Assembly: GCA_903889905.1 (NCBI GenBank)
Contig: CAISZI010000046.1
Coordinates: forward strand, 64,853 to 128,852
Origin: Candidatus Wirthbacteria bacterium
GTDB lineage: Bacteria; Patescibacteriota; CG2-30-54-11
Length of the DNA: 64,000 bases
Direction of reading: 5' to 3'
How positions within the stretch are numbered: the stretch's first letter is position 1; each line of letters starts with the position of its first letter. The notes beneath the pieces are model-generated. The model saw nothing but the letters and a program-made list of their open reading frames with translations, was not told the DNA's origin and searched no databases. This document shows, in pieces, positions 1 through 28,424 of this stretch. The translations under genes and the position numbers were made by a program.

Positions 1-246
1 GTATTTGAAACAGCCATAAACCAGGCGATCAGCGGACAACCCAATCTCCGCTACCATCTCCATGTCGCACAGGAAAACGGATTCCTGACGGCGGCCAAAG
101 TGATGCAGCAGACGGGTCAAGTCGAACGGGACACTTTGGTGATGCTGTGTGGCCCCTTACCCATGATGGAAGCGTTCAAAAAACAATTTATGGCGCTGGG
201 ATGCAAAAGTCGACAAATTATTTATGAAGACTTCAGCCTGCTATGA
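1..246 (+). CDS. C-terminal fragment, cut by the window edge, of a ferric-reductase/NOX-like flavoprotein (NAD-binding part); paralog of the 1360..2634 product
   Basis: Frame-1 translation ...NLRYHLHVAQENGFLTAAK..LCGPLPMMEAFK..IIYEDFSLL* is about 55% identical to the C-terminus of the 1360..2634 protein. The TGA at 244-246 overlaps the ATG of the next gene. Confidence 0.7.
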   Translation, partial: VFETAINQAISGQPNLRYHLHVAQENGFLTAAKVMQQTGQVERDTLVMLCGPLPMMEAFKKQFMALGCKSRQIIYEDFSLL

Positions 247-821
247 AAAAAACTCTCCGCACCATGGTCGCACTCGCAATTTTTTCACTCTTTTTCTGCT
301 TTGCTGCGGTTCAGGCCGGCACACTTTTGCCGGTGAAAAGCAGCAATCCAGCTTCAACGGATGCCACCACCTGGTCCAATCCCACCACTGCCAGCGACCA
401 AGCGGCTTCGCCTCCAGCAACATCCACCCCAGCAGCACCGGTGACACCAACCCCGCCTCCAGCGACAGCCGTTTCCCCACCGCCCGTCACCAAAACCCAA
501 CCGACAAACACCACCAAAACCACGACGACACCCAAACCGGCGACCAAGACGCCCACTCCCACGCCAAAACCCACTCCCACTCCAACACCTGCGCCAACGC
601 CCGCTCCTGCACCAACGCCCACACCGGCACCAGCGCCGACACCACCCCCACCAGTTAGCAATCGCTGCATTGTCACCGTGAATGGTTCGCAATATGATGT
701 AACCAATTTACGCCGAACCCACTCCGGTGGTGATATATTTACGTGTGGAACGGATATGACTTCGACTTTTATGTCCATGCATGGCACCAACTGGGGCCTG
801 ATCGCCCGCTACAAAGTCTAA
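243..821 (+). CDS. Secreted Pro/Thr-rich protein with a C-terminal mini cytochrome b5-like heme-binding domain
   Basis: Signal peptide MKKTLRTMVALAIFSLFFCFAAVQA; a long (TPxP)n/PAPTP linker; C-terminus VNGSQYDVT(5)HSGG..CGTDMTSTF..MHG follows the b5 spacing YDVT-x5-HPGG...GxDxT..F..H. The start overlaps the stop of the upstream reductase fragment (ATGA). Confidence 0.6.
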   Translation: MKKTLRTMVALAIFSLFFCFAAVQAGTLLPVKSSNPASTDATTWSNPTTASDQAASPPATSTPAAPVTPTPPPATAVSPPPVTKTQPTNTTKTTTTPKPATKTPTPTPKPTPTPTPAPTPAPAPTPTPAPAPTPPPPVSNRCIVTVNGSQYDVTNLRRTHSGGDIFTCGTDMTSTFMSMHGTNWGLIARYKV

Positions 822-846
822 TTTACACTACCCTCAGGTCATCAAT

Positions 847-1338
847 ATGCCACCCACTCTCAACCTCAACCTCAACACCAAAGCCAAAACTGGACTGACC
901 GTTTTCATAGTGCTTGCTGTGCTCCTGATCGCCGCGCTGAGTATTTACGTTGACTTGCGGCATCGTGCCCGCAACCGCTCGGCTGCCACAGCCACAGCCA
1001 CAACCTCGACACCCCCCACCAGTAACAAGACATTCAAAGCCATCGACCTGCTTGCCTTTAATGGCACAGACCCGGCCAAACCCATCTACATCGGCTACGA
1101 GGGTAAAGTCTACGACGTGACTGCCGGCAAAGATTTTTATGCGACAGGCGGGGATTATCACTGGCTGGCTGGCAAAGACGCCACCGATGCTTTACACTTG
1201 TTTGGCGGCGACATTATCAAAAATAAATATCCCCCCGTGGGAACAATTATTCCAGACCCGAGCGGCCAGACCAATACAGCGCAGGTTCCGGAGTCGTTGA
1301 CGTTGCTCCTGCAGCAGCAGGGCGCACCCGCCAAATAA
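847..1338 (+). CDS. Membrane-anchored MAPR/PGRMC-like cytochrome b5-family heme-binding protein
   Basis: N-terminal anchor TGLTVFIVLAVLLIAALSIYV after a Lys-rich segment. The domain DPAKPIYIGYEGKVYDVTAGKDFYATGGDYHWLAGKDATDALH closely parallels the MAPR motif [40 protein letters not shown]. Confidence 0.65.
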   Translation: MPPTLNLNLNTKAKTGLTVFIVLAVLLIAALSIYVDLRHRARNRSAATATATTSTPPTSNKTFKAIDLLAFNGTDPAKPIYIGYEGKVYDVTAGKDFYATGGDYHWLAGKDATDALHLFGGDIIKNKYPPVGTIIPDPSGQTNTAQVPESLTLLLQQQGAPAK

Positions 1339-1359
1339 TTTTAATAAGGATAAATCAGG

Positions 1360-2634
1360 ATGGGCAATCTGGTTGTTGTTGGCATGACGGTGATCACCGG
1401 GTTTCTCTGGCTGCTGACCAAGACCGGTTATTTTGCCATTGGAGCCGATCCACTGCGTGCCTTGAGCCAGATTCTGGCGCTCGTCGGGGCCACTCTGCTC
1501 GCCATCAATTTCATCCTTGCGGCTCGACTCAAAGTCGTCGAAGACCTGTTTAAAGGGCTCGATAAAGTTTATCACGCTCATCACTGGACAGGTGCGCTGG
1601 CTACGGTATTCCTGATCAACCACCCGATCTGGCTTGTCATCAATGCCATTCCGCAGTATCAGCTGGCCAAACTTTACCTGCTGCCCAGCGATTCCAAAGC
1701 CTACACCTTGGGCATTCTGGCGCTTTACAGCATGCTGCTTTTAATCCTGATCACCCTCTATGCCAAAATCAAATACGACACCTGGCTCAAAACGCACAAA
1801 CTCATGGGTTTCCCGCTGCTGCTGGCCAGTTTGCACATGCTGCTTATTACCAGCGACATTTCCCGCTCGCCTGCGCTGCGACTCTGGCTGTTTGCCCTCA
1901 CCGGCTGTGCGCTGGCGGCCTATTTTTACAAAGCGTTCCTCTACAAATCCTATGGCCCCCAGGGCCTCTACCGCGTTGCCAATGTCCAAAGCCAGGGTCC
2001 GTATACCTTGCTTAAACTCCGGCCCGTGGGTGAACGAATGAAATTTCGTGCTGGCCAGTTTGCCTTTCTTTCCACCGGCAACCAGACCATAGGCACAGAG
2101 CCGCATCCGTACTCCTTTGCCAGCAACCCCGGCGACAATATTGTGCAGTTTGCGATCAAAAATCTGGGTGACTACACCAAAAACATGCGCAAGTCCCAGG
2201 CCGGCGACGAAATCACACTGCAAGGGCCTTATGGCCGCTTTGGGGATGCTTTTTTAAACAGTGACCGCAATGCCATCTGGATCGGGGGTGGGGTTGGCAT
2301 TACGCCGTTTTTGAGCCTGATGCACAAAATCAAACCCAAACAACAAGTGGAATGGTTCTACAGTGTCAACAAGCCTGAAGAAGCCCTGTTTGAAAAAATC
2401 ATCCAGGAAGCTCTGCAGGACAAGCCCAACCTGCGCTACCGCCTGCATGTGGCCCAGAAAGACGGTTATCTGACGGCACACAAAATCCGGGAAAAACTTG
2501 GCGGGACCATCGATGTCGCTGCTATGATCATGCTGTGCGGGCCGCCTGCCATGATGGCAGCGATGAAGGCACAACTGCTGGAAATCGGCATCGCACCATC
2601 CAATATCATTTATGAGGATTTTAGCCTGAGATGA
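1360..2634 (+). CDS. Ferric reductase/NADPH-oxidase-like transmembrane flavocytochrome (FRE heme domain plus FAD and NAD(P)H domains)
   Basis: Six predicted TM helices with His pairs (HAHHW; HKLMGFPLLLASLH). FAD motif HPYSFAS, NAD(P) motif GGGVGITP, and CGPPAM near the C-terminus. RBS AAGGAT upstream. Confidence 0.8.
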   Translation: MGNLVVVGMTVITGFLWLLTKTGYFAIGADPLRALSQILALVGATLLAINFILAARLKVVEDLFKGLDKVYHAHHWTGALATVFLINHPIWLVINAIPQYQLAKLYLLPSDSKAYTLGILALYSMLLLILITLYAKIKYDTWLKTHKLMGFPLLLASLHMLLITSDISRSPALRLWLFALTGCALAAYFYKAFLYKSYGPQGLYRVANVQSQGPYTLLKLRPVGERMKFRAGQFAFLSTGNQTIGTEPHPYSFASNPGDNIVQFAIKNLGDYTKNMRKSQAGDEITLQGPYGRFGDAFLNSDRNAIWIGGGVGITPFLSLMHKIKPKQQVEWFYSVNKPEEALFEKIIQEALQDKPNLRYRLHVAQKDGYLTAHKIREKLGGTIDVAAMIMLCGPPAMMAAMKAQLLEIGIAPSNIIYEDFSLR

Positions 2635-3011
2635 AAAAAACAACGAAACTCCTGGTTTTTCTGTCCACCTGGGCCCTGGTCATCAGCTTTGTTGTCGTTG
2701 CCATCGGGATCAACTCCAGCAATTCTGCCAATACTCCCACAGCAGTCACGTCAACCAACTCGTCTGCTGCGACGACGACAAATACTCCCAGCGCCAATAC
2801 AAATTCCAGCTCAACCTCCACGACAGCCAACACCACGCAGACCAACAGCAATCGCTGCGTTGTCACCGTCAATGGTTCCCAATACGACGTCACACAACTG
2901 CAGTATACCCACTCCGGCGGCAATGTCTTTAGCTGTGGCACGGATATGACCGCGACCTTTGAATCCATGCATGGTACGCGTTGGAGCAAAATTGCCCGTT
3001 ATAAAATCTAA
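2631..3011 (+). CDS. Secreted Ser/Thr/Asn-rich protein with a C-terminal mini cytochrome b5-like domain (paralog of 243..821)
   Basis: Its ATG overlaps the reductase stop (ATGA). Signal/anchor MKKTTKLLVFLSTWALVISFVVVAIG. C-terminal 50 aa are about 75% identical to the 243..821 C-terminus (VNGSQYDVT..HSGG..CGTDMT..F..MHG). Confidence 0.6.
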   Translation: MKKTTKLLVFLSTWALVISFVVVAIGINSSNSANTPTAVTSTNSSAATTTNTPSANTNSSSTSTTANTTQTNSNRCVVTVNGSQYDVTQLQYTHSGGNVFSCGTDMTATFESMHGTRWSKIARYKI

Positions 3012-3088
3012 CCAGCGAAAACATACAAAGGTGGAAGTTGCTTAGAGGCAGTGGGTGTTAACTTTATCACTTTATCACTAAGTTTCCG

Positions 3089-3763
3089 ATGCGCATTCTG
3101 ATTGTTGAGGACGAAGAACGTATTGCCACGAATCTCCAGAAAATGCTGCAAAAACAAGCGTTTGCCGTTGATCTGGCTGCGACGGTGGCCATTGCCAAGC
3201 AAAAAATCAACACGGATTCTTATGACCTGGCCATTATTGACTGGATGTTACCAGATGGAACCGGAATCGACGTAATTACGGCCATCCGCACACTGGCGAC
3301 ATCAACGCTGATCCTGATGGTCACAGCCCGCAGCCAGGTGGAGGACAAAGTCGAAGGACTGGAAAACGGGGCCGACGATTACCTCACCAAACCATTTGCG
3401 ATGACGGAACTGATTGCCCGGGTCAAAGCACTGCTGCGGCGACTGCCCCATGCTCCGCAAGCACCCATTCTAAAAATCGCTGACCTGGAAATCAATACCA
3501 ACACACATAGCGTCATCCGCGCCGGCAAAACCATTACCCTGTCACCGCGGGAGTACGGTTTGCTGGAATATTTGGCCAAACATGTTGGCGTCGCCCAGGA
3601 ACGCCTTGATCTCCTGACCCATGTCTGGGATGAAAATGCTGACCCCTTTTCCAACACGGTGGATGTTCACATCCGTTATTTGCGCCACAAACTTGACGAT
3701 CCCTTTCGCGTTAAACTGATCAAGACCGTCAAAGGCAAAGGATACATGATATGTCCAGACTAA
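3089..3763 (+). CDS. OmpR-family response regulator (receiver plus winged-helix)
   Basis: MRILIVEDEERIA..DLAIIDWMLPDGTGIDV..VTAR..; C-terminal winged-helix motif. A TTTATCAC x2 direct repeat sits at 3063-3078 upstream. Confidence 0.85.
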   Translation: MRILIVEDEERIATNLQKMLQKQAFAVDLAATVAIAKQKINTDSYDLAIIDWMLPDGTGIDVITAIRTLATSTLILMVTARSQVEDKVEGLENGADDYLTKPFAMTELIARVKALLRRLPHAPQAPILKIADLEINTNTHSVIRAGKTITLSPREYGLLEYLAKHVGVAQERLDLLTHVWDENADPFSNTVDVHIRYLRHKLDDPFRVKLIKTVKGKGYMICPD

Positions 3764-5232
3764 AGGCACGCCACAAACTGACCTTGCAACTGGCTGTCAC
3801 GACTTTTGTGTTGATGGCCGCGATGGGCGCCTTATTCACGCTGGTGGCGTATCTGCATGCCACCCAAGCCTATCGCGATTCACTCAAAACCGAAGCCGAT
3901 GACATTGCTGAAGATTACCTCGGCAGTGACGGCAGCCGCATTATTTATCAGGACAAATCTGGCAACCAGACCACGCTCACCAACCATCTGCGCGAGAGCA
4001 ACAGTTCCGCTCTGGTGTTTAATATTAACCATCAGCTGCTGGGCGCTTTTGGCGCTTTTGAGACGGCTATCGAGAACAACCAGCTACCCATCGAGACGGA
4101 TACCAATGCCGTTTCCCTGACCTCACTCAACACGATTTTGGAGCGGGTCATCGCCACCGGCAAATACGAATTCAACAGCCACCTTTATGCCGGCCTGCAT
4201 GAACTGGTCGTGCTCTCCTATCCCATCCAGGCAAGTGGCAAAACCATTGGTGTGCTGCAACTTGGCAAATCATCAACCTTGCTTTCGCAAACACTGGTCA
4301 CGGAGTTGCTGATTTTGCTCTCAGCCCTGCCCTTGGCGCTTTTGCTGAGTGTGCTGGTGGCAGCCTGGCTGAGCCGTTCTGCCTTTGGTCCAATTCATCA
4401 GATGCGGCAGTCGATCAACCAGATCTCCAGTCTAAAAGTTAACAAACACCTGACCCCAAGTGGGCATGAGGATGACGATCTCACACAACTGGCACTGGCC
4501 TTTAATGCCATGATGGACCGATTAAAGCAAAGCAGTGCCAGACAAAAAGACTTTGTCGGTAATGCTTCACATGAACTCAAAACGCCACTGACCAAAGCCA
4601 TCTCCACGCTTGATTTGGCACTCAGCGAAACGCATCATCCCGAGCTGGAACTCGTCAAATCAGACCTGCTGGACATGAACCACCTGATCGAAGCACTCCT
4701 GTTCCTGGCCCACGCCGACGACCTGTCCCTGCAACAACAAAACGGTCCAACCGACCTCAGCAGTGCAATCGATAAAATTCTCCAACGCCTCGCACCAGAC
4801 ATCGAACCCAAACACCTGCAAATCATCACCACGAACATACCCCAGGTCAACATGGCCATGGGCAAGGTGCATCTTGACCTGCTCCTAAGCAATCTGCTTT
4901 CCAATGCCGTCAAATACAGCCTGGCACAAACCGCCATCACTGTCACGGCGATTGTCTCCGCAAACAAACTGCAACTTTCGGTCCAGGACCACGGCATCGG
5001 CATGGACAAAACCACGCTGGATCATGTTTTTGAGCGTTTTTATCGGGCTCCCAAAGCCAAACAGCAATCGGTAGGAAGTGGCCTGGGACTTTCTATTGTC
5101 CAGGCGATTGCCACCGTTTACGGCCTGACACTTCAGGTCGAGTCCACACTTGATCTTGGCACAACCATTACCGTCATGCATATTCCGCTGGCACCAGTTA
5201 CAGCACCCCAGAAAAGCACCCGTTCCACCTGA
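3751..5232 (+). CDS. Sensor histidine kinase (2 TM, HAMP, HisKA, HATPase_c)
   Basis: H-box ASHELKTPLT; HATPase motifs NAVKYS, DHGIGM, GSGLGLSIV. Overlaps the regulator stop by 13 nt. Confidence 0.85.
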   Translation: MSRLKARHKLTLQLAVTTFVLMAAMGALFTLVAYLHATQAYRDSLKTEADDIAEDYLGSDGSRIIYQDKSGNQTTLTNHLRESNSSALVFNINHQLLGAFGAFETAIENNQLPIETDTNAVSLTSLNTILERVIATGKYEFNSHLYAGLHELVVLSYPIQASGKTIGVLQLGKSSTLLSQTLVTELLILLSALPLALLLSVLVAAWLSRSAFGPIHQMRQSINQISSLKVNKHLTPSGHEDDDLTQLALAFNAMMDRLKQSSARQKDFVGNASHELKTPLTKAISTLDLALSETHHPELELVKSDLLDMNHLIEALLFLAHADDLSLQQQNGPTDLSSAIDKILQRLAPDIEPKHLQIITTNIPQVNMAMGKVHLDLLLSNLLSNAVKYSLAQTAITVTAIVSANKLQLSVQDHGIGMDKTTLDHVFERFYRAPKAKQQSVGSGLGLSIVQAIATVYGLTLQVESTLDLGTTITVMHIPLAPVTAPQKSTRST

Positions 5233-5288
5233 TTGTCGCGCGTCACAAATACCGTTATAGTTGGCAGGATTTACTTATCCAGGAAGCC

Positions 5289-7151
5289 ATGACCAACAGA
5301 ATTCGCCTCATCATCGCCCTGCTTATCGCCGTCATTCTGGCACTGGTGCCGCTCGTGTATTCCTCGAGTGTCTATCTCGTCTTTGATTTGCCCAAGCTGG
5401 TACTCCTGCAGGCCGGGGTAGAAATTGCGCTGGGCTTGTTTGTTTTTGTGCTGCTTGCTGAGTGGCTGCAGAACAAACCCTGGCAAAAGCCATGGCGTGC
5501 GCTTATCCCGCAAAGGATCGATCTGCTGTGGGTGACGCTGGCCTTTTTTGTGCTTTCCAATGTCTTGGCCGCACTGCTCGCTGCATCGCCGCACCAGGCC
5601 TGGTGGGGAACGTATTACCGCCGGCAGGGTTTATTTTTATTGCTCCACGACGTAGCGCTCATGAGCGTGGCACTAAATTTGGCACGCGACAAAAAGTTGC
5701 TCAAAATCATGCTCGGTGGTGTACTCGCGAGCGCCCTGGGTGTGGTTTTTTATGTTATTCTGGAAATCTTGAACATCCCTGATTACAGCCACTGGAAGTC
5801 CGCCGGTGCTTACGCTGGCAGACTGGTGAGCACGTTTGGCCAACCGGATTTCATGGCGGGCTACCTCGGCATGATCGTACCGCTTATGGCCGGCATCATC
5901 TGGAAAGGCAAGAGCTGGATCAACCTGGTGATCCTGCCTGCTTTAATTTTAACGCTGTATTCCATTTTTGGCAGCCAGTCGCGCGGCGCCTGGTTTTCAC
6001 TGCTGGCCGTGATTCTGATTGCCGGCATGGGTATCGCGCTCACCCGTCGCCAACTCTGGCAAAAAACAACGCTGCTGCTGACGATTGTTGTGCTGACGCT
6101 GGGCGGACTGTTGGGTTTTTATGAAATGTCCAAACGCAACGGCACTGCTTTCCGTGTTGAGGAACTGCTCAGCCCGGCGCGCTGGCAGATGATCGAGCGC
6201 TACCAGATCTGGGACCGCGCCATCGCACTCGTTGCCAACCGTCCGTGGTGGGGCTATGGCCAGGATAATTTTGAACTGGTTTTTCCCTCTATTTTGCGAG
6301 CATCGGATCAACATTTACAAACCGTCTACGTCGACCGCGCCCACAATCTGTTGCTGGACATGCTCGTTTCCAGTGGAGCATGGGGTACGCTGGCGTGGCT
6401 GCTGGTGGTGGGCATGGTGATGGCAACAACCATCAAAACCTGGCGCCGCAAACTATTAAGTGACCAAAACAAAATGCTGGTTGTCGCACTCGGTCTTGGC
6501 ATCTTGTTCTATATCTTTCAAGGCATGGTCAACCTCAACGCCATTGGTCTGGATGCGCTGTTCTGGGTGATGCTGGCACTGCTGGTGGGCATTTGCCATG
6601 CACCAGACGCTATGTTTAATACAACACCAATCGTTGCAGCCACGCCGACCAAACACATTGGCAAAAAGTCGTCCAAGCTAGTCAGGCCTCAACCTCAAAA
6701 AACACTGCCTCCCTGGGCGTTCGCCTTGCTTGCTTTGCTGATCGCCGTGCCGGCCGGTGCTGGCCTCATTCTCAACCTGCACCTTTACCAGGCTGACGCA
6801 GCCTACAAGAACGGACTGCGGGATGAACTTTCGGACAAAGCTGCGGCCGTGGCCGATTATCAGCAAGCCATCGCCCTCCATGCAGAGCAGCCGCTTTACC
6901 GCATCAAACTCGTCGACAACGCGCTGCAGCTTGGCTACAACGCAACCACCGCTGCCGACAAACAGCTTTGGTACCAGGCCGCATACCAAAGCCTCCAGGC
7001 AGGACTCGCCGCCGGTACTGCGCAAGCGGATTTTGATTATCGTTTGGGCGAAACTTATCAGTTTGGCCAGACGCTGGTTGCGGCGGACTGGCAAGCCAAA
7101 GCCAACCAATATTTGCAACAGGCGCACCAGGAAGCACCGTTCAAGTACTGA
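5289..7151 (+). CDS. O-antigen ligase/Wzy_C-family polytopic membrane protein with a C-terminal TPR-like region
   Basis: About 12 TM helices; motif WWGYGQDNFELVF...RAHNLLLDML typical of the O-antigen ligase family; A/Q/Y-rich helical repeats at the C-terminus. Confidence 0.6.
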   Translation: MTNRIRLIIALLIAVILALVPLVYSSSVYLVFDLPKLVLLQAGVEIALGLFVFVLLAEWLQNKPWQKPWRALIPQRIDLLWVTLAFFVLSNVLAALLAASPHQAWWGTYYRRQGLFLLLHDVALMSVALNLARDKKLLKIMLGGVLASALGVVFYVILEILNIPDYSHWKSAGAYAGRLVSTFGQPDFMAGYLGMIVPLMAGIIWKGKSWINLVILPALILTLYSIFGSQSRGAWFSLLAVILIAGMGIALTRRQLWQKTTLLLTIVVLTLGGLLGFYEMSKRNGTAFRVEELLSPARWQMIERYQIWDRAIALVANRPWWGYGQDNFELVFPSILRASDQHLQTVYVDRAHNLLLDMLVSSGAWGTLAWLLVVGMVMATTIKTWRRKLLSDQNKMLVVALGLGILFYIFQGMVNLNAIGLDALFWVMLALLVGICHAPDAMFNTTPIVAATPTKHIGKKSSKLVRPQPQKTLPPWAFALLALLIAVPAGAGLILNLHLYQADAAYKNGLRDELSDKAAAVADYQQAIALHAEQPLYRIKLVDNALQLGYNATTAADKQLWYQAAYQSLQAGLAAGTAQADFDYRLGETYQFGQTLVAADWQAKANQYLQQAHQEAPFKY

Positions 7152-7171: not shown

Positions 7172-9163
7172 TTACTGTATGTCCTTATCACCAAACAGTA
7201 TTGCCAGCAAAGGACTCGCACGTTGTTCCTTTTGCAAATACATCCGCAAACTGTCCATGTCGTAGCGGCCATAAAAAATCTTTAGATTCTCAACAATGTC
7301 AGAATGCTTCCGGAGATAGTCAAAATCAACCCCAAGACTGCTGGGGGCCCGGGATCGGTACCAATCAGACCCATAATCTCGATCATGGGATGTTGCAACG
7401 AGTGCTTCACAGTACTTCATGATCGGTCCGAGATAATCTTTTTCCGCCGTCGCAGATTTCAGTTTTGGCTTTCCCATAAAATCCCACCAGCTACCTTCTG
7501 CTTCATCCGGTTCATTGCCATGGGCGTATTTACGGGCCAGCTTGGCCATCTCCAATTTCAGTTGTAATTGTTTTTTGACTTCGCCATCCGGAAGTAAATT
7601 GACATAAGGGGCTTCGCATATACTCTCAATATGACCGATTGACATAGATTCGTTATGGATAACCGGGAACCAGGCATTGATATGTTCGACACAAACCTGT
7701 TCCCAGACCTTTTTCCGATCACTGGCTTCGCCTTCAGCCATTCCCATGTAATTTCCAGCCAAATGGGCAAACGCCGTCTGCGCAATTTCCTGGACTTGAA
7801 AAAAATCGATGCGCTGCTGGGCGTGGAACCAGTCGCGCATATCATCCAGCGCCTGTCTGGCCTGGACCAGTTCATCCTGGTTGCGACAGCCCAGTTTCAT
7901 TTTTAGCCATTTATCCTCAGCTTCCTGCAATGTCACCCAGCCATGCTCATCATTGTAATGCGCTTTTCTGACCAGGTCCCCAATCTCGGCATTAATCCGA
8001 GGTAAGGGTTTTTCCTCCTGCCGGGCAGTGCGTGAATCCAGCCACTTGATTGTATTCAACCGATCCAGTTCAACAGCAGCGGCTTTGGTTTTGCGCAGCT
8101 CATGCTTGGCATCCTTGGCAAAATGTTCTGCCATCATTTTTGCAATCTGCCGCTTGCCACTTTCTTCGGACATCTTTCTCAATTCATCACGTTTTTGCAA
8201 AACTTCCCGCATTACTTCCAGCGCAATTTGGTAATTGTAACAAACATCCTCGGCCACCGATTCCGGCCCTACAAATGCAGCGGTCATGCCAAAGGACAAA
8301 TGTGCTTGCATTTCAACAATTCCCGTCCCCAAGCGGAGGTTGTTAAGAGCAGAAACGAGAAAATCATCCAGCTGACCTGGCAGCGGAACATGAAACATCT
8401 GCTTTTCGTGCGTCAGCTCATGCATGAGCACATCAAACCCTGTCTGATCCGTAACCTGACGATCTCCTCCAATTGCGTCAGCTGCAGGAACCTGAAAAGG
8501 TTTTGGGATCTCGGCTGTGAATAATCTTTTCAACCGTTCGGTCAAGTCCGGGAATTCACCTAAAATGCGCTGCTGGTGAGCAATGTTTATTCCAATAGCG
8601 CCTTCTCTGGCGTTCAGGAGAAAATCATAAGCATCATGGATTTCTCCCTGTCGGGTATATTTCACCCCCTTGCCAAGACTTTGTTCTTTGAGATCAGGAT
8701 CCAGCGGATCAAAGCCGAATTCCGTGCGTAACTGATACCAGTCCGGACAGTGTTCGCGCACGCTGGCACGGATTTCTTCCATGACTTTGGCTTCGTCTTT
8801 GACCAGTGGTTTCTCAAAACCGTGTAAAAGACTGTGGTCCGGGACATAGCCTTCGTGATGCACGATACACTGTTTGATGTCGTCCAGCTGGTCGGTAGTA
8901 AAGCGTTTCACCTGCCTGATCACCAGTTCCCGTTCACGCATCTCAAGCACGTCCAGTTTGGCCAGATCCAGCAAGCGCTCAAAAAAAGGATTAACCTGCT
9001 TGGGATCTGGCTGCTCAGATTCGATCTTGGCTTCGGCCTTGGTTTCCGGACCAAGTTCCGGCAGGGGATGTGCATCCATCTCACCAAGCATAGGCTGAAC
9101 GATCGCTTCAACCATCACTTCATCAAGATTTGGCATGAGTTTAAATCCAAATAGATTGGGCAA
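7172..9163 (-). CDS. Hypothetical 663-aa cytoplasmic protein with an HExxH motif (possible zincin-like metallopeptidase fold)
   Basis: Long ORF with coding-like composition; the motif FDVLMHELTHEKQMFH occurs once; no signal peptide or TM helix. No family recognised. Confidence 0.5.
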   Translation of the reverse strand: MPNLFGFKLMPNLDEVMVEAIVQPMLGEMDAHPLPELGPETKAEAKIESEQPDPKQVNPFFERLLDLAKLDVLEMRERELVIRQVKRFTTDQLDDIKQCIVHHEGYVPDHSLLHGFEKPLVKDEAKVMEEIRASVREHCPDWYQLRTEFGFDPLDPDLKEQSLGKGVKYTRQGEIHDAYDFLLNAREGAIGINIAHQQRILGEFPDLTERLKRLFTAEIPKPFQVPAADAIGGDRQVTDQTGFDVLMHELTHEKQMFHVPLPGQLDDFLVSALNNLRLGTGIVEMQAHLSFGMTAAFVGPESVAEDVCYNYQIALEVMREVLQKRDELRKMSEESGKRQIAKMMAEHFAKDAKHELRKTKAAAVELDRLNTIKWLDSRTARQEEKPLPRINAEIGDLVRKAHYNDEHGWVTLQEAEDKWLKMKLGCRNQDELVQARQALDDMRDWFHAQQRIDFFQVQEIAQTAFAHLAGNYMGMAEGEASDRKKVWEQVCVEHINAWFPVIHNESMSIGHIESICEAPYVNLLPDGEVKKQLQLKLEMAKLARKYAHGNEPDEAEGSWWDFMGKPKLKSATAEKDYLGPIMKYCEALVATSHDRDYGSDWYRSRAPSSLGVDFDYLRKHSDIVENLKIFYGRYDMDSLRMYLQKEQRASPLLAILFGDKDIQ

Positions 9164-9215: not shown

Positions 9216-10007
9216 CTATACCTTAAGCTCCCGCACCAGTGCCTCAATTCCCTCAAGTTTTTTCCCCTCCGGCAAAGTGTCATACCGATCCAGCATGGCA
9301 CTGCCCACAATCGCCACTTCGGCCAGGGGAGCAATCTGCTCAACCTGCGACCGTTTCTTGATGCCAAACCCAACCGCCAGTGGCAACTGCAAGGTCAACT
9401 TTGTCCGCTCCAGATACGTCACCAATTCCGGATCCAGTGTTTCGCGTGCGCCGGTCACCCCATAAGTTGCAAAACAGTACACAAACCCACGGGCAAACTT
9501 GGCAATCTGCTCCAGTCGCGCTGACGTTGTGGCTGGTGACACAAAGCAGACATTGAGCAAACCGAAACGCTCGGCCGTGGCAAACAACTTTTCCGTCTCT
9601 TCCTCCTGAATCGGCATATCGGGAATCAATAAACCGCTGACACCCGTGGCCGCGGCCTCCGCACAAAACGCTTCCACGCCATAACTGTGCACCAGGTTGA
9701 AATAGCTCATCAGCAGCAGCGGTATCGCAACCGTTTCCCGCAATCTGCGCACCAACGCAAAAGCATCCGCCACTTTGGTCCCGCCAGAGAGCGATAAATC
9801 ATTAGCACGCATCATTGTCGGGCCATCCGCCACCGGATCGGAAAACGGCAGCTGCAGCTCGACAAAATCCGCCCCCGCCCGCGCCATGGCCTGCACAACA
9901 CTGACGTTTGCCTCGAGGCTTGGATAGCCGACAACGACATGGGTCATCAAGCCGGTACATTCGTTGTGTTGCAAGTCATTAAGTTTTTCAATTATCGCAT
10001 TCATCAA
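9216..10007 (-). CDS. trpA: Tryptophan synthase alpha subunit
   Basis: VVGYPSLEANVSVVQAMARAGADFVELQLPFSDPVADGPTMMRAN and the TIM-barrel TrpA core; last gene of the trp operon. Confidence 0.9.
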   Translation of the reverse strand: MMNAIIEKLNDLQHNECTGLMTHVVVGYPSLEANVSVVQAMARAGADFVELQLPFSDPVADGPTMMRANDLSLSGGTKVADAFALVRRLRETVAIPLLLMSYFNLVHSYGVEAFCAEAAATGVSGLLIPDMPIQEEETEKLFATAERFGLLNVCFVSPATTSARLEQIAKFARGFVYCFATYGVTGARETLDPELVTYLERTKLTLQLPLAVGFGIKKRSQVEQIAPLAEVAIVGSAMLDRYDTLPEGKKLEGIEALVRELKV

Positions 10008-10024
10008 TTTCCCTTTCTTAAATC

Positions 10025-10156
10025 ATTGATTGTGCCGGTTGCTTTTGCGCCGAAACAACCGACCGGAGCCATCTCCAAAACTGTCCCTTCGACCGCCTTA
10101 CATATTACTGAACTCAAGTCATTTGTGCAGGCGTAAAAGCAACCGGCACAATCAAT
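10025..10156. repeat. 132-bp element with perfect 22-bp terminal inverted repeats (ATTGATTGTGCCGGTTGCTTTT ... AAAAGCAACCGGCACAATCAAT) in the trpB-trpA spacer
   Basis: Perfect reverse-complement match between 10025-10046 and 10135-10156, extendable to about 27 bp with one mismatch. It occupies what is normally a near-zero trpB-trpA gap. Confidence 0.6.
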
Positions 10157-10170
10157 CCCTCTTGTAATCT

Positions 10171-11415
10171 TCATAAAGCCGCCCGCTTCAAAAATGCTTT
10201 CCATTTCTCATCCCCCAGCGCCTCGGCCACGATAAAAATGTCCTTATCCCCGCGGCCCGACAGGTTGACCACAATGCTTTGTGATGACGATAGCGTAGGC
10301 GCCAGTTTAATGGCTTCGGCCACCGCGTGCGCGGATTCAAGCGCCGGGATAATGCCTTCGGTTTTGATTAAAGTTTTCAGTGCAGCCAGAACTTCGATGT
10401 CCGTGGCATAATGCATAACCAGTCGTCCACGGCTGTGCATATAGGCAAGCTGCGGGCCAACTCCAGCATAATCCAGTCCTGCCGAGACACTGTGCGTGGG
10501 TTGAATCTGTCCTTCGCTGTCCTGCAAAAACAAAGATTTATAGCCCTCGACCACGCCTGGCCGGCCGGCCCCAAAACGAACCGCGTGCTCACCGACCTTG
10601 GTGACGCCGCGGCCACCGGCTTCCACCCCAATCAAGTGGACAGCGCTGTCGTCCAGAAAAGCATTGAACAAGCCCATGGCATTGCTGCCGCCGCCGACAC
10701 AAGCGACCAGATAGTCCGGTTTGTCGACGCCATACTCCTTGAGCTGCTCCCGTACCTCGAGCCCGACGATACTTTGGAAATCACGGTTCATGGAGGGAAA
10801 CGGATGTGGCCCAAGGCATGAGCCCAGCAGATAATGCGTGTCACGCACTGTGGCAATCCAGTCTTTAATCGCGGCGTTAACGGCGTCTTTGAGTGTGCGT
10901 GATCCAAATTCCACCGACCGCACCTCAGCCCCAAGCTGCTCCATCCAGAACACGTTGGGCCGTTGCCGCGCAATATCCACCTCACCCATAAAGATTGTGC
11001 ATTCAAACCCGAATTTAGCCGCCACCGTGGCTGTCGCTAGACCGTGTTGGCCCGCACCGGTTTCGGCGATCAGACGTTTTTTGCCCATGCGTTTGGCCAA
11101 GAGTGCCTGGCCCAGTGCATGGTTGATTTTGTGCGCACCGGTATGGTTGAGGCCTTCGTTTTTGATAAAAATTCTGGCACCACCCAGCTGTCGGGTTAAA
11201 TTCTCGGCAAAGTAGAGCGGCGTGGGCCGGCCGGAAAAATGCTGAAACAAATCCAACAATTCTCGCTCAAAATTCGCATCCTGTCGTGCCACGTTGTAAG
11301 CGCCATTCAATTCCTGCAACGCGGGATAAAGCATCTCGGGCACATACTGCCCGCCAAACGGTCCAAAGTGCCCGCCTGCATCCGCATCAAATGTCGTGGG
11401 GAAAAAAAGTTTCAT
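10171..11415 (-). CDS. trpB: Tryptophan synthase beta subunit (PLP-dependent)
   Basis: HTGAHKINHALGQALLAKRMGKKRLIAETGAGQHG and GGGSNAMGLF motifs; 414 aa. Confidence 0.95.
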   Translation of the reverse strand: MKLFFPTTFDADAGGHFGPFGGQYVPEMLYPALQELNGAYNVARQDANFERELLDLFQHFSGRPTPLYFAENLTRQLGGARIFIKNEGLNHTGAHKINHALGQALLAKRMGKKRLIAETGAGQHGLATATVAAKFGFECTIFMGEVDIARQRPNVFWMEQLGAEVRSVEFGSRTLKDAVNAAIKDWIATVRDTHYLLGSCLGPHPFPSMNRDFQSIVGLEVREQLKEYGVDKPDYLVACVGGGSNAMGLFNAFLDDSAVHLIGVEAGGRGVTKVGEHAVRFGAGRPGVVEGYKSLFLQDSEGQIQPTHSVSAGLDYAGVGPQLAYMHSRGRLVMHYATDIEVLAALKTLIKTEGIIPALESAHAVAEAIKLAPTLSSSQSIVVNLSGRGDKDIFIVAEALGDEKWKAFLKRAAL

Positions 11416-11429
11416 CCGGTCTCCTCTAG

Positions 11430-11855
11430 TTAAGTCAAATCCGTACTTGCAACCGACCGATAATCCAGTTGCGCCAAAACGCCTGCCAAAGCATTACCCT
11501 TGCTTACCATGACCACGATCGCCTTGTACAAATCTTTACCACTGGGGAACACCTGCAGGGCATCGTATTGGCCACCTGCCGCTTTGATGGCCTGCAAAAG
11601 TCGGGACAACGCGCCCGGCGAATCGTCAATTTCGACAGCTTCCACCTGATCTAGATGTGCCAGGTGTTTGGCGTCCTGTAAAGCGGTAAGCGCCACGTTG
11701 GGCTGGTCGACCAAAAACCTGATCGCGTCGCCCGCCGTTTGCATTTGGACGGTCATGGCCACACCATTCACGCCCGCTCGGCCGAGAATTCCCGTCACAT
11801 CAATTATCAATTCCGGGTCAGGCGTAATATAAATCGTCACTCGCGACAATGACAT
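11430..11855 (-). CDS. Small ACT-domain-like protein embedded in the trp operon
   Basis: 141 aa with a beta-alpha-beta-beta-alpha-beta ACT-like pattern (VTIYITPDPELIIDVTGILGRAGVNGVAM...); sits between trpF and trpB on the same strand with short gaps. Confidence 0.45.
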   Translation of the reverse strand: MSLSRVTIYITPDPELIIDVTGILGRAGVNGVAMTVQMQTAGDAIRFLVDQPNVALTALQDAKHLAHLDQVEAVEIDDSPGALSRLLQAIKAAGGQYDALQVFPSGKDLYKAIVVMVSKGNALAGVLAQLDYRSVASTDLT

Positions 11856-11875
11856 TTTTTCTCCTTGATCATGTT

Positions 11876-12520
11876 TTAAACAACCGCTTTGGCTGTCCGA
11901 ATGAACTGTCGAATAAGCTCGTTATCTTTAATCCCGCGACTGCTTTCCACGCCGCTCGAAACATCGACGATGTCCGGATGAATCGTTGCGATCGCCGCTT
12001 GCACATTGCCTGGGTTCAGGCCGCCCGCAAGGATAATGGGTTTGCCATAGCGTTTGATTCCGTGCGCCAAAGTCCAAGCAAACGTTGTGCCAGTGCCGCC
12101 GGTTTTTCCGTCAATTTGTGTGTCCAGATGGATGCCGTCAACTTCGTCAACAAAAGATTTCACGCGCTGCACAAGATCTTCACTCCCCACGCCAAATGAC
12201 TTCCAGACAAGCAGACCAGCAGCACGCAGCAGCCGACAATCTTCAGGACTTTGACGACCCTGAAGTTGAACTCCATCCAGATGAGCGCTCTGAGCAATGG
12301 CCAGAACTTCGGCAGCTTTTTGCTCCACAAAAACACCCATTAACTTGATGTTACTGCGATCCTCCTCCAACGCGTTCACTAGTGGAATCAATGCACACAC
12401 TTCCACTGATCGCGGCGACGATGGCACATTTACCACAAACCCAAGGAACTCTGCCCCCGCCGCTACCGCCGTTTGTGCCGTCACCAAATCCCGGATGCCA
12501 CAAATTTTTACTAGGGTCAT
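11876..12520 (-). CDS. trpF: Phosphoribosylanthranilate isomerase
   Basis: MTLVKICGIRDLVTAQTAVAAGAEFLGFVV...; start overlaps the trpD::trpC stop by 4 nt. Confidence 0.85.
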   Translation of the reverse strand: MTLVKICGIRDLVTAQTAVAAGAEFLGFVVNVPSSPRSVEVCALIPLVNALEEDRSNIKLMGVFVEQKAAEVLAIAQSAHLDGVQLQGRQSPEDCRLLRAAGLLVWKSFGVGSEDLVQRVKSFVDEVDGIHLDTQIDGKTGGTGTTFAWTLAHGIKRYGKPIILAGGLNPGNVQAAIATIHPDIVDVSSGVESSRGIKDNELIRQFIRTAKAVV

Positions 12521-14508
12521 TTCTTTTTCCTTTTACCTGTATCTTTTCCGTCATTCTGAGCGGAGCGAAGAATCCTTACTGCGCGCGGACCAAAAGTCAG
12601 TTGGTCATTGTGGTGTAGATCGCTCGCCAAGCCTCGGGATGACAATTGAGAAGACTTCTCTATCCCCATTAACTCCGCAATCTTCTCCCCCGCATCCCGA
12701 CTTACCATCAAACTCGTCCCCACCAGCACCGCCTTGGCGCCAGCCTTTTGTAAACGCACCACATCCTCCCGGCTTTCCACCGCTGACTCCGCCACCAATA
12801 AACAGTCGCTTGGCACCAATCCGGCCAATTTCTCAACGCTGGCCAAATCCGTTTGCATGGTGCTGAGATCACGCGCATTAATCCCGATTATTTTCGCCCC
12901 AAGTTTGACCGCGCGATCAATTTCTACAGCTGTATGTGTTTCGACCAGCACCTCCATGCTAAGCTGTACGGCCACGGCCATTAATTCCTTCAATGGGTCA
13001 TCTTCCAACATCGCCACGATCAACAAAATAGCATCCGCACCATACAGCCTGGCTTCATAAATCTGATAGGCATCAACCATGAAATCTTTTTGTAAAACCG
13101 GAAGTTGAACCGCCGCCCGCACTGCTTCAAGGTCTGCCAGGCTTCCCCCAAAGTAACGCCCATCCGTCAGAACAGAAATGGCCTCGGCACCGGCTTTGGC
13201 ATAGGTCTGTGCCAGCGCCGTCACGTCAAAAGTCTCCTGCAAGACGCCGCGCGATGGCGACTGCCGCTTGATCTCGGCAATCAGTGCCATCGCACTAGAC
13301 TGGCTCTGCAAGGCAGACAACAGGCTTCGTTTTACCAGCGGCAAATCTTTGACCTTTTCTTTGATCTGCGCCAAAGATACTTGCTGTTTACGAACCTCAA
13401 CTTCGACACGTTTATGAGCAAAAATTTCATTTAACAGATTTTCTCTTACCCCCTTTATAAAGGGGGCAGGGGGATTTTTCAGTTTTCCCGTCTTTATTCT
13501 TTGACTCTTCTCCCTCAACTCTTCCACTTTCTCCATCGCCTTACCACTTCCTATCATCTCCTCAGCCATTTTTACTCCTTCTACCAAACTGCTCACCTTA
13601 CCAGCCACCAACAGCCCCGCCGCTGCATTGGCGAGCACAAAGTCGCGTTTGGGGCCCGTTTCCGTACCATTCAAAATAGACCGCAAGATCGTGGCGTTCA
13701 TTTGTGCGTCACCACCAACAAGTGCATCAAGCGGTGCTTGAACCAGACCAAAATCAGCTGGTGAAACAGAATATGTCGTTACTTTTCCATCCTGCAATGC
13801 ACTCACCTGCGTTACACCATGCACCGCGACCTCATCAAGTCCACTCCCATGCACCACCATCGCTCGTTTGGTGCCAAGCTCCATAAGCACACGCGCTAAC
13901 GGCTCCGTCAGTTCAGGAGAATAGACACCGATCAACTGATATTCCGCCCCAGCCGGGTTGCTTAAGGGCCCCAGCACATTAAAAATCGTGCGCATGCCCA
14001 ATGCTTTCCGTGCTGGCATGACATGTTTGACGCCTGGGTGAAAGGCCGGTGCAAACATAAACCCAATCCCAACCTCCCGCAAACAGTCTTCGACTGCATC
14101 TGGTTTGAGGTCTACGGCAATACCCAACGCTTCCAGCACGTCAGCACTGCCCGAGCGGCTCGAAAGCGCCCGGTTCCCATGCTTGGCAACTTTCACGCCA
14201 GCGGCAGCCAGGATGAAGGCGGCGGTGGTCGAAACATTGAACGTTTGAGCTCCATCGCCACCCGTGCCACAGCAATCCAACACCGGAAAATCAACGTTAA
14301 CTTTTGCCGCATGTTCCCGCATCACCCGCGCCAAGGCAGCAATTTCTGCAATAGTTTCGCCCTTTTGTCTCAGTCCCATCAGCAGCGCCCCGATCTGGGC
14401 ATCGCTGCCTTCACCGTTCATCAGGCTGTGCATCATACCCTCGGCTTCTGCGCGCGACAAATCCTGACCAGCTCCAAGTTTGTGTAAAACCGATGTTATA
14501 TTATCCAT
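12517..14508 (-). CDS. trpD-trpC: Fused anthranilate phosphoribosyltransferase and indole-3-glycerol-phosphate synthase (TrpD::TrpC), with a linker and a 45-aa basic C-terminal tail encoded by hairpin repeats
   Basis: N-terminal half is TrpD (GTGGDG, KHGNRALSSRSGSADVLEALG). C-terminal half is TrpC (ENLLNEIFAHKRVEV..., IAEIKRQSPSRG). The linker KLKNPPAPFIKGV is encoded by the perfect palindrome CCCCCTTTATAAAGGGGG at 13449-13466. The tail ...RSAQNDGKDTGKRKKK is encoded by 12520-12660, including GTCATTCTGAGCGGAGCGAAGAATCC. Confidence 0.85.
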   Translation of the reverse strand: MDNITSVLHKLGAGQDLSRAEAEGMMHSLMNGEGSDAQIGALLMGLRQKGETIAEIAALARVMREHAAKVNVDFPVLDCCGTGGDGAQTFNVSTTAAFILAAAGVKVAKHGNRALSSRSGSADVLEALGIAVDLKPDAVEDCLREVGIGFMFAPAFHPGVKHVMPARKALGMRTIFNVLGPLSNPAGAEYQLIGVYSPELTEPLARVLMELGTKRAMVVHGSGLDEVAVHGVTQVSALQDGKVTTYSVSPADFGLVQAPLDALVGGDAQMNATILRSILNGTETGPKRDFVLANAAAGLLVAGKVSSLVEGVKMAEEMIGSGKAMEKVEELREKSQRIKTGKLKNPPAPFIKGVRENLLNEIFAHKRVEVEVRKQQVSLAQIKEKVKDLPLVKRSLLSALQSQSSAMALIAEIKRQSPSRGVLQETFDVTALAQTYAKAGAEAISVLTDGRYFGGSLADLEAVRAAVQLPVLQKDFMVDAYQIYEARLYGADAILLIVAMLEDDPLKELMAVAVQLSMEVLVETHTAVEIDRAVKLGAKIIGINARDLSTMQTDLASVEKLAGLVPSDCLLVAESAVESREDVVRLQKAGAKAVLVGTSLMVSRDAGEKIAELMGIEKSSQLSSRGLASDLHHNDQLTFGPRAVRILRSAQNDGKDTGKRKKK

Positions 14509-14509
14509 C

Positions 14510-15094
14510 TCATTTCCCCTTGCACTGCAAAAAATTCGTCACCATCTGTTTGCCCACTTCCGTGCCAATCGATTCGGGATGAAACTGGATGCCTTCGATC
14601 GGGAACTGCCGATGCCGCAGTCCCATGATCAATCCGTCCTCGGTTTCTGCCGAAACCTCCAGTACCCCCGGCAACGACGACCGCTCCACCAGGAGCGAAT
14701 GGTAGCGCATGCCCAAAAAAGGATTTTCAATGCCGGCAAAAATACCCTGGCCGTCGTGACGGATCAAACTCTGTTTGCCGTGCAGAGCAATTGGCGCGCG
14801 CACCACATTGCCCCCAAAAATCGCCCCAATCCCCTGATGCCCGAGGCAAACGCCCAGCAGTGGTATCGTTTTACCCATTGCCAAAATCACTTCGCGGCAC
14901 ACCCCAAAGTAATGCGCATCCCGCGGATCTCCGGGCCCTGGTGAAATCACAATATGCGAAGGCATCAATAGCTGCGCTTCCTCCAGGCTGATCTGGTCGT
15001 TACGAAAAACCACCGGATTCCCACCCAGCTCACCAATGATCTGATAGAGGTTGTAGGTAAACGAATCGTAGTTGTCGATGATAAGCGTTTTCAT
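14510..15094 (-). CDS. trpG: Anthranilate synthase component II (glutamine amidotransferase)
   Basis: MKTLIIDNYDSFTYNLYQ..; catalytic GVCLGHQ; start overlaps the trpE stop (ATGA). Confidence 0.9.
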   Translation of the reverse strand: MKTLIIDNYDSFTYNLYQIIGELGGNPVVFRNDQISLEEAQLLMPSHIVISPGPGDPRDAHYFGVCREVILAMGKTIPLLGVCLGHQGIGAIFGGNVVRAPIALHGKQSLIRHDGQGIFAGIENPFLGMRYHSLLVERSSLPGVLEVSAETEDGLIMGLRHRQFPIEGIQFHPESIGTEVGKQMVTNFLQCKGK

Positions 15095-24731: not shown

Positions 24732-25406
24732 ATGAAAATACTCATTATCGAAGACGAACACAAGATCGCGCAAGCACTCAAGGAAGGCCTCGAGCAGGAA
24801 TCCTTCGCCGTGGACGTGCGCTTTGACGGCGAGGCCGGACTCCAGGCTGGGTTGTTTGACGACTACGACCTGATCCTGCTGGACGTGATGCTGCCCAAGC
24901 GCGATGGCATGGAAGTTTGCCGCGAGCTGCGCCAAAACAATATTCACACGCCAATTCTAATGCTCACTGCCCGCGACCAGAATCGCGACATCATCCAAGG
25001 CCTGAACCAGGGAGCCGACGATTATTTGCCCAAACCATTTTCCTTTGAAGTCCTGCTTGCCCGCATCCGGGCGCTCCTCCGCCGCCCGCACGAAGCCATC
25101 TCTACCGTACTCAAAGTGGCTGACCTCAGCCTCGATACCGTGACCAAGGAAGTGAAGCGCGCTGGCAAACCGATCAAACTGTCGGCCAAGGAATTTGCCT
25201 TGCTGGAGTACCTGATGCGTAGCCAAGGCAAAGTGCTGACCAAAAACAACATCCTCACCCACGTCTGGGATTTTGACGCCGATGTGCTGCCCAACAATCT
25301 AGAAGTGTTTATCTCTTACTTACGCGCCAAAGTGGATAAACCTTTTAAAAAATCACTCATCCACACCGTCCACGGCTTTGGTTACAAACTGGGAGAATCG
25401 GCATGA
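24732..25406 (+). CDS. OmpR-family response regulator
   Basis: MKILIIEDEHKIAQAL...DLILLDVMLPKRDGMEV...LTAR; winged-helix C-terminus. Confidence 0.85.
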   Translation: MKILIIEDEHKIAQALKEGLEQESFAVDVRFDGEAGLQAGLFDDYDLILLDVMLPKRDGMEVCRELRQNNIHTPILMLTARDQNRDIIQGLNQGADDYLPKPFSFEVLLARIRALLRRPHEAISTVLKVADLSLDTVTKEVKRAGKPIKLSAKEFALLEYLMRSQGKVLTKNNILTHVWDFDADVLPNNLEVFISYLRAKVDKPFKKSLIHTVHGFGYKLGESA

Positions 25407-26437: not shown

Positions 26438-26525
26438 GTTCTTTTTAAACTTTGCGACAGATAATGAATTGAGACTTTCACCAATCGAGTGAAAGGCTAA
26501 CCCCGTTATTAACATAAAGGAGCCT

Positions 26526-28259: not shown

Positions 28260-28292
28260 TGACGACTTAGTGATTCTGCGAACTTAGTCGGA

Positions 28293-28331: not shown

Positions 28332-28424
28332 GAAAAGAACCAACACCTTAACACAGCCCCATTTATCTTCGTCCCTGTTCCGCAAGCTCAGTCATTTGTT
28401 TTCCTCTACATAAGGATTCCTCCC

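Follow-up and report, generated by a model that had tools for sequence, protein, structure and literature searches.

A duplicated flavocytochrome and mini-cytochrome b5 gene pair in a Candidatus Wirthbacteria genome

Where do electrons go once a bacterial flavocytochrome resembling the NADPH oxidases (NOX) has taken them across the membrane? The question is raised by a gene cluster at positions 1-5232 of a 64,000-nucleotide stretch of a Candidatus Wirthbacteria genome (GenBank assembly GCA_903889905.1, contig CAISZI010000046.1, positions 64,853 to 128,852; hereafter, the window), in which a gene for a ferric reductase-like transmembrane flavocytochrome (FRE) is followed, twice over, by an overlapping gene for a small protein ending in a cytochrome b5-like domain. 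Ever since bacterial NOX homologues were described in 2017, it has been a question what accepts their electrons physiologically, and the authors of the work on one of them, SpNOX, suggest that it might be a protein (PMC11564096). The feature in the window is real and strongly non-random, and it is a duplicated case of an operon type that has been described, yet is functionally uncharacterised. An initial reading of this DNA, made from the sequence without database searches (the sequence-only reading), could not place the combination in any described bacterial system. That claim falls: a preprint (bioRxiv 10.1101/2021.11.17.468889, Nov 2021) describes, for bacteria of the candidate phyla radiation (CPR), an operon in which a two-component system accompanies genes for the b5 protein cytb5MY, a putative ferric reductase (pFre) and two cytb5-like proteins (CBLA and CBLB). 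Our locus belongs to this operon type, so the case for a discovery is weaker than the sequence-only reading held. What the window and its relatives add to the accessible part of the preprint is the tandem duplication, the conserved translational coupling, occurrences in DPANN archaea and the link to the protein-acceptor question for SpNOX. The reading we lean towards, and consider reasonably probable, is that electrons from NAD(P)H would pass through FRE to a tethered b5 protein outside the cell, and from there to an acceptor that the cluster does not encode.

The flavocytochrome and its coupled partner

All genes from position 1 to 7151 lie on the forward strand, separated by short gaps or overlapping (Table 1). 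As the sequence-only reading had noted, an ATGA stop/start overlap joins FRE and b5 at both junctions, at 243-246 (FRE-A/b5-A) and 2631-2634 (FRE-B/b5-B). The window edge leaves only a C-terminal fragment of FRE-A, which is recognised by the FRE hidden Markov model (HMM; E 3e-23) and matches the C-terminus of the full 424-aa protein (P0002) visible in locus L001 of the genome scan described below, a locus that extends upstream of the window. A scan of the cluster for promoters and terminators gave nothing above background that would divide it. Two further genes, both located upstream of window position 1 within L001:1082-1993, were counted to the cluster; one encodes a 45-aa hydrophobic peptide, and the other a 237-aa protein with a transmembrane (TM) segment, a Pro-rich linker and a Cyt-b5-like domain (PF00173, 22.2 bits). 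The domain of the latter is cytb5M-like and contains GTVYDVSTNPFWVGCQHHSAHGGTDITAIFPHP; in locus L009, a domain of this type is fused behind the mini-b5 domain.

FRE-B, the complete copy in the window, matches Ferric_reduct (PF01794, 1e-12), FAD_binding_8 (5e-7) and NAD_binding_1 (1e-11) in Pfam, and the SpNOX structures 8qt6 and 8qq7 match its residues 43-422 with an E value of 4e-40. Six hydrophobic segments, which we read as six TM helices, and the motifs HPYSFAS (at residue 249), GGGVGITP (309) and CGP (393) bear out the earlier assignment to the FRE-type flavocytochromes. Two histidine pairs, H74/H88 in TM3 with 13 residues between them and H146/H159 in TM5 with 12, are invariant in 36 homologues and align on the SpNOX haem ligands (numbering from PMC11564096), and F421 near the C-terminus aligns to SpNOX F397. 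The outer loops are predicted to be short, which implies an exposed outer haem. The dehydrogenase domain also matches b5 reductases weakly (7rom, 4e-8). FRE-B thus has all the parts needed to take electrons from NAD(P)H in the cytoplasm to the other side of the membrane, and, judged by homology, it probably does so. Its nearest relatives are only ~42% identical, and those that carry names are mostly Patescibacteria.

The partner proteins consist of three parts each. In b5-A, an N-terminal signal or anchor segment is followed by a Pro/Thr-rich linker of 109 aa (P 31%, T 28%) and a C-terminal bis-His b5 domain of ~55 aa; in b5-B, an N-terminal TM helix, a Ser/Thr/Asn-rich linker of 42 aa (T 36%, S 21%, N 19%) and the b5 domain succeed each other. 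The gathering cut-off of Pfam Cyt-b5 (PF00173) is 23.7 bits, and b5-A falls just below it (scores in Table 1). The mini-b5 profile of the window aligns best to the haem domain of yeast flavocytochrome b2, and H94 and H114 (b5-B numbering) align to the histidines of the HPGG and FEPLH motifs of that protein, which we take to be its axial ligands His43 and His66. Both histidines are invariant in an alignment of 42 mini-b5 sequences, as are C76, G82, Y85, G96, G97 and C102. Classical b5 lacks cysteines equivalent to C76 and C102, which probably form a disulfide in the mini-b5 proteins; a disulfide would fit an extracytoplasmic protein. An exhaustive HMMER search with the mini-b5 domain across 1.84 billion representatives yielded 787 relatives at E <= 1e-3. 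A search of a word index, which is too coarse for so short a domain, returned no homologue of the domain and, for full-length b5-B, only the protein itself.

In the AlphaFold2 model of b5-B, which was built with the 42-sequence alignment (a run with a two-sequence alignment reached a pLDDT of 60 and was discarded), the domain has a pLDDT of 93-97, residues 3-30 are helical and the linker is disordered. In a Foldseek comparison of the model with the PDB, the listed top 50 matches were all cytochrome b5 or b5-domain proteins (probability 0.99-1.0); target TM-scores were 0.5-0.56 for stand-alone b5 chains, and the top-ranked cytochrome b5 chains aligned over 57-60 columns with an rmsd of 2.3-2.9 A. 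The mini-b5 domains are thus confidently modelled as a trimmed b5 fold, with ~55 residues compared with ~82 in classical b5, and their conserved histidines suggest that they bind haem. The b5-like character of the C-terminal domains, the b5-type ligand histidines and the low-complexity linkers, all proposed by the sequence-only reading, withstood the HMM, alignment, model and composition analyses.

The same reading took the small proteins to be exported. Their topology signals agree with this: in all 35 mini-b5 homologues (35/35), the N-terminus is rich in K/R and leads into a hydrophobic segment with few positive charges beyond it, and in b5-A the N-flank is MKK with few positive charges on the C-flank, which indicates an N-in/C-out topology. 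Release from the membrane is another matter, as b5-A looks cleavable between AVQA and G, whereas b5-B looks anchored and not released. Among the relatives, five secreted proteins (P0122, P0143, P0148, P0160 and P0232) carry 4-8 tandem b5 domains of the disulfide type, each copy of which keeps both cysteines and both histidines; several of these tandem proteins are Ala/Gly/Pro-rich and actinobacteria-like. At least two b5 domains were present in 27 of the 149 best mini-b5 relatives scored.

FRE-A and FRE-B share 56% identity and the domains of b5-A and b5-B 68%, and the two FREs are sisters in a neighbour-joining distance tree, which is rough. Related loci have the order [TM-linker-b5-like] - b5MY - FRE - mini-b5 - RR - HK, where RR is an OmpR-family response regulator and HK a sensor histidine kinase, whereas the order in the window genome is [237-aa b5-like] - FRE-A - b5-A - b5MY - FRE-B - b5-B - RR - HK. 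From this comparison of gene order, a copied FRE and b5 cassette appears to have been inserted, which fits a lineage-specific tandem duplication. The duplicated arrangement was found in none of the other loci of the 80-locus scan. A different configuration occurs in a Saccharimonadales locus (L040:3345-6242), where two FRE genes are divergently oriented and no b5 gene is present.

Conservation of the pair across genomes

To place the pair in a wider context, one genome per species was scanned, which gave 80 FRE loci, and these loci were searched with HMMs built from the window domains. A mini-b5 gene directly follows FRE in 25 of them, so the adjacency on which the sequence-only reading rested is retained well beyond the window. 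Of 29 open reading frames (ORFs) located directly downstream of related FREs, 28 match PF00173 independently (best 7.5e-44); 17 of the 29 junctions, including archaeal ones, are 4-nt overlaps, and another 8 have a spacing between -1 and +15 nt. When the loci are grouped by title, a directly downstream b5 gene is present in 14 of 25 Patescibacteria-named loci, in 3 of 6 from DPANN-named archaea (L017, L033 and L054), in 5 of 11 from metagenome-assembled genomes (MAGs) titled 'uncultured Gammaproteobacteria/Pseudomonadales', in 3 of 5 from unnamed bacteria and in none of 33 from other named taxa (Streptococcus, Actinomycetota, Rhodobacterales, Chloroflexota and others). The pairing is accordingly restricted by taxon, with 17/31 under Patescibacteria and DPANN titles against 0/33 in the others (Fisher p = 2e-7). 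Together, the overlaps, the independent PF00173 matches and this p value rule out chance adjacency.

The archaeal titles are plausible, in view of the aIF5B-type factor encoded in L033 and the TrmB regulator in L017. The proteobacterial titles on b5-positive MAGs, by contrast, are probably wrong: the FRE of L061, under such a title, is 85% identical to FREs of MAGs titled Uhrbacteria (L066) or Patescibacteria group, and FREs under proteobacterial titles interleave with CPR sequences in the tree. On the strength of that identity, we did not accept a spread of the pairing into Gammaproteobacteria or Pseudomonadales. Seven MAGs titled 'Gammaproteobacteria' or 'Pseudomonadales' (L015, L018, L022, L042, L058, L061 and L076) have CPR-like FRE/b5 clusters, with 39-51% GC.

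Clustering of the neighbours showed that only the MAPR-like b5 protein and the orthologous RR and HK recur around the pair. The order is b5MY - FRE - mini-b5 - RR - HK in L003 and b5MY - FRE - mini-b5 in L004 (GCA_021814545.1); the mini-b5 gene of L003 overlaps the FRE stop and was found by HMM at a place where the source gene caller had put a minus-strand ORF. Orthologues of RR and HK follow the pair in L003, L009 and L015, and in L031 an RR orthologue is located nearby on the opposite strand. The OmpR-type RR probably regulates the cluster, in line with the control by the adjacent OmpR/HK pair that had been suggested from the sequence, and the preprint reports an adjoining two-component system in 22 of 36 genomes (10.1101/2021.11.17.468889).

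According to the preprint, genes for cytb5MY and for a putative ferric reductase are found together in 29 of 36 CPR genomes, and those for the two atypical cytb5-like proteins CBLA and CBLB colocalise with cytb5MY as well; PF00173 is found within 10 kb in 185 of the 1427 CPR genomes that have PF01794; and no colocalisation was seen outside CPR in IMG. The function of the operon is described there as unknown and CPR-specific, possibly a process involving a membrane complex, and Fe(III) is named among possible substrates (10.1101/2021.11.17.468889). No later functional work on the CPR cytb5MY/pFre operon was found in the literature searched. Our cluster shares with the operon the PF01794 flavocytochrome, a Tyr-ligand b5 protein without MIHIR, extra b5-like membrane proteins and the RR with its kinase; the mini-b5 may correspond to CBLB and the 237-aa upstream protein to CBLA. 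It differs in the tandem duplicate of the FRE and mini-b5 cassette, and the FRE-b5 pair is also present in the three DPANN-titled loci.

Proposed electron flow and its alternatives

The proposed path, from haem binding and FRE-to-b5 transfer to the direction of flow and the terminal acceptor, would run as follows. A hydride from cytoplasmic NAD(P)H would be passed onto the FAD of each SpNOX-type FRE, and single electrons would then cross the membrane through the inner haem (H74/H146) and the outer haem (H88/H159). The solvent-exposed outer haem would reduce the co-translated mini-b5, which the flexible low-complexity linker would tether on the outside of the cell. The mini-b5 would in turn reduce an extracellular acceptor that the cluster does not encode; O2, Fe(III), a quinone and the surface of a host or partner are candidates. 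Largely fermentative organisms without a respiratory chain would thereby be able to shed reducing equivalents or would have a reductase at their surface. The Tyr-ligated MAPR-like protein would be an accessory, perhaps a haem chaperone or sensor, and the OmpR/HK pair would make the system inducible.

Such an outward path is plausible, and by analogy it fits the biochemistry of SpNOX. FRE-B resembles SpNOX (PDB 8qq7, 8qt6) over its full length, with six TM helices, four haem histidines, the HPxS FAD motif, the NAD(P)H motifs and the C-terminal Phe in common, as well as short outer loops that imply an exposed outer haem. In the absence of oxygen, SpNOX reduces cytochrome c directly, at a higher rate than O2. 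The outer haem of SpNOX is highly exposed and a canonical O2-binding site was not found, and its authors consider that O2 is possibly not the physiological acceptor and that a protein acceptor may exist, like MsrP for MsrQ (PMC11564096). The window enzyme differs in having a translationally coupled candidate for such an acceptor, whereas the Streptococcus loci have no b5 neighbour. Identity is ~28%, a figure that comes from tblastn of FRE-B against Streptococcus mitis-group loci (L082-L086) and not from the SpNOX chain.

The same homology could instead be taken to mean that FRE is a true O2-reducing NADPH oxidase, producing superoxide at the surface or consuming O2 for the protection of an anaerobe, with b5 as an accessory that scavenges, stabilises or modulates. 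FRE-B is a full-length homologue of an enzyme that oxidises NAD(P)H with O2 in vitro, many related FREs have no b5 partner, and genes for glutaredoxin and Fe/Mn superoxide dismutase (SOD; L004, 7699-7932 and 9957-10580) or rubrerythrin (L054, Woesearchaeota, 1616-2194) are located near the pair. We judge this explanation unlikely, because an accessory role would hardly account for so tight and conserved a translational coupling to an electron-carrier domain of the bis-His type, SpNOX lacks the canonical O2 site and may not use O2 physiologically (PMC11564096), and the glutaredoxin, SOD and rubrerythrin neighbours are not conserved across loci.

Two other couples invite comparison. In MsrPQ (E. 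coli YedYZ), a dihaem membrane protein of the FRD superfamily passes electrons from its exposed outer haem to a dedicated extracytoplasmic partner encoded alongside it (PMC11564096), as FRE would to b5. However, MsrQ lacks a fused FAD/NAD(P)H domain and is fed by quinol or Fre, and MsrP is not a small haem carrier but a molybdoenzyme that acts on a defined substrate. Membership of the window cluster in MsrPQ was ruled out, because no MsrP-like gene is present, the dehydrogenase domain of FRE is fused and the neighbours are b5 proteins. In NADH-cytochrome b5 reductase with b5, and in flavocytochrome b2, a flavoprotein of the FNR type likewise reduces a bis-His b5 domain. In contrast to these, donor and acceptor of the window would be placed on opposite sides of the membrane, bridged by two transmembrane haems, and the b5 domain is trimmed to ~55 aa and has two extra invariant cysteines.

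As a special case of the proposed outward path, FRE and b5 together might act as an assimilatory ferric reductase that reduces external Fe(III) chelates for uptake. The Ferric_reduct domain of FRE, a member of the FRD superfamily, an inducible cluster with its RR/HK pair and the listing of Fe(III) among possible substrates in the preprint (10.1101/2021.11.17.468889) speak for it. SpNOX, however, reduces ferric iron very poorly, with a kcat of 0.05 per s that its authors regard as not physiologically relevant (PMC11564096), and neighbour clustering found no ferrous-iron or siderophore transporter conserved beside the pair, so that we hold this version to be very improbable. The same clustering bears on two known types of extracellular electron transfer. 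As the only conserved neighbours are b5, RR/HK and unrelated housekeeping genes, both a flavin-based system of the Listeria type and a multihaem cytochrome c conduit were rejected.

The third b5 protein, membrane-anchored and encoded between the two copies, suggests a role in haem handling as a further alternative. Its matches in the PDB are Arabidopsis MAPR (1t0g/1j03, E 1e-15), Hadesarchaea cytb5M (6nzx, 2e-6) and PGRMC1 (4x8y, 7e-6). Y98 and Y104 align to PGRMC1 Y107 and Y113, and K127-Y128 (NKYPPVG) align to KY in AKYPVVG of Arabidopsis MAPR 1j03. The MIHIR insert is absent, with ~9 residues from ALH117 to K127 compared with ~33 in MAPRs, which rules out membership in the eukaryotic MAPR proteins (PGRMC1/NENF); by its sequence the protein is exactly of the cytb5MY type, which is marked by equivalents of PGRMC1 Y107, Y113 and K163/Y164 and by the lack of MIHIR. 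Orthologues are located upstream of FRE in 8 other loci. The MAPR-like identity given by the sequence-only reading therefore stands, but its extracytoplasmic placement is not supported: in nine homologues the two flanks of the anchor are about equally rich in positive charge, and in the window protein the greater charge after the helix (RHRARNR) favours a cytoplasmic domain. This member also bears on the debated origin of eukaryotic PGRMC-type proteins (10.1101/2021.11.17.468889).

Under this alternative, the tethered b5 and the MAPR-like protein would capture haem from a host and relay it across the envelope, and FRE would reduce Fe(III)-haem for release or import. The Tyr ligand equivalents of the MAPR-like protein agree with such a role: according to the preprint, Tyr ligation gives tight binding of ferric haem but weak binding of the ferrous form, and its authors speculate on reductive release (10.1101/2021.11.17.468889). 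The partner that is coupled to FRE, however, is not the Tyr-ligated protein but the six-coordinate bis-His mini-b5, which resembles an electron carrier. The haem relay proteins of Gram-positive bacteria have wall-spanning linkers, and the long linkers of the window proteins, if they span the wall, resemble them; CPR bacteria generally lack haem synthesis, yet FRE requires two haems. Of the 25 loci with a directly downstream b5 gene, just 8 also have the MAPR-like gene, and no haem transporter is conserved beside the pair in the neighbour clustering. On balance, we regard a haem relay as distinctly unlikely.

Several observations weigh against the outward electron path itself. CPR bacteria are generally not known to make haem, which leaves the haem supply unexplained. 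The b5 gene is absent at about half of the CPR-named FRE loci, so FRE can work alone, and neighbour clustering revealed no terminal acceptor or further conduit conserved near the pair. The oxidative-stress genes near some pairs hint at a role in oxygen or reactive oxygen species metabolism rather than in electron export. Furthermore, the PF00173 scores of the ~55-aa mini-b5 domains sit at the gathering threshold, the charge flanking the anchor of the MAPR-like protein is ambiguous as to the membrane side, and the full tryptophan operon in the window is atypical for CPR.

If the electron path is as proposed, minimal and mostly fermentative symbionts would use it to dispose of reducing power or to carry out redox chemistry at the surface, which would bear on how CPR and DPANN symbionts live on their hosts. 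A NOX homologue of CPR and DPANN with a coupled, outward-facing b5 makes the protein-acceptor hypothesis directly testable with two small recombinant proteins. A bolder idea, and one that we think rather unlikely, is that FRE, the mini-b5 and the b5 proteins with tandem copies (2-8) together form a haem-b extracellular electron conduit in CPR and DPANN. Were it true, CPR and DPANN, which lack respiratory chains and cytochrome-c maturation, would discharge electrons from NAD(P)H to the environment or to the host surface, as a respiration-like sink specific to episymbionts. The long-suspected 'protein acceptor' of bacterial NOX homologues would then naturally be this conduit.

Gene content of the window

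Table 1. Genes of the FRE/b5 cluster and other features of the 64,000-nt window, with positions in the window
Feature	Position	Strand	Evidence or remark
FRE-A 3' end, last 81 codons	1-246	+	window edge cuts gene
b5-A, mini cytochrome b5, 192 aa	243-821	+	PF00173 22.8 bits
MAPR-like b5, membrane-anchored, cytb5MY type (from sequence), 163 aa	847-1338	+	PF00173 33.2 bits
FRE-B, full-length SpNOX-type transmembrane flavocytochrome b, 424 aa	1360-2634	+	Pfam, SpNOX structure matches
b5-B, mini cytochrome b5, 126 aa	2631-3011	+	PF00173 24.0 bits, AlphaFold2 model
OmpR-family response regulator (RR)	3089-3763	+	Response_reg and Trans_reg_C (Pfam)
Sensor histidine kinase (HK), HAMP-HisKA-HATPase_c	3751-5232	+	Pfam; overlaps RR gene
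Wzy_C protein	5289-7151	+	follows HK gene
663-aa ORF	7172-9163	-	no Pfam match
Tryptophan operon	9216-16665	-	complete
Two ABC exporters	20019-23860		upstream of second OmpR/HK pair
Second OmpR/HK pair, FtsX/MacB-type permease, ABC ATPase	24732-29144		
P1B ATPase and HMA/DsbD_2/cupredoxin fusion	30292-34556	-	adjoining genes
Subtilase and ABC1 domain protein	39069-48677	-	1163 aa and 1965 aa
AAA_14 + DUF4143 ATPase genes	59724-60863 and 62623-63798	-	paralogous

The tryptophan operon comprises trpA, trpB, trpF, a trpD-trpC fusion of 663 aa, trpG and trpE. It would be unusual for a reduced CPR bacterium, and a relative in L004 carries EPSP synthase. An Rfam scan of the window gave no matches at all, and hence no rRNA or tRNA genes. 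The 663-aa ORF without any Pfam match comes directly after the Wzy_C/TPR-like gene. Further along, the second OmpR/HK pair is followed by the FtsX/MacB-type permease and its ABC ATPase. The P1B ATPase is of the copper type and has HMA domains, and it adjoins a gene in which HMA, DsbD_2 (CcdA-like) and cupredoxin domains are fused. The subtilase contains four DUF4214 repeats, and the sole Pfam match of the 1965-aa protein is an ABC1 atypical kinase domain near the C-terminus. Towards the end of the window, the two paralogous ATPase genes with AAA_14 and DUF4143 domains are located close together.

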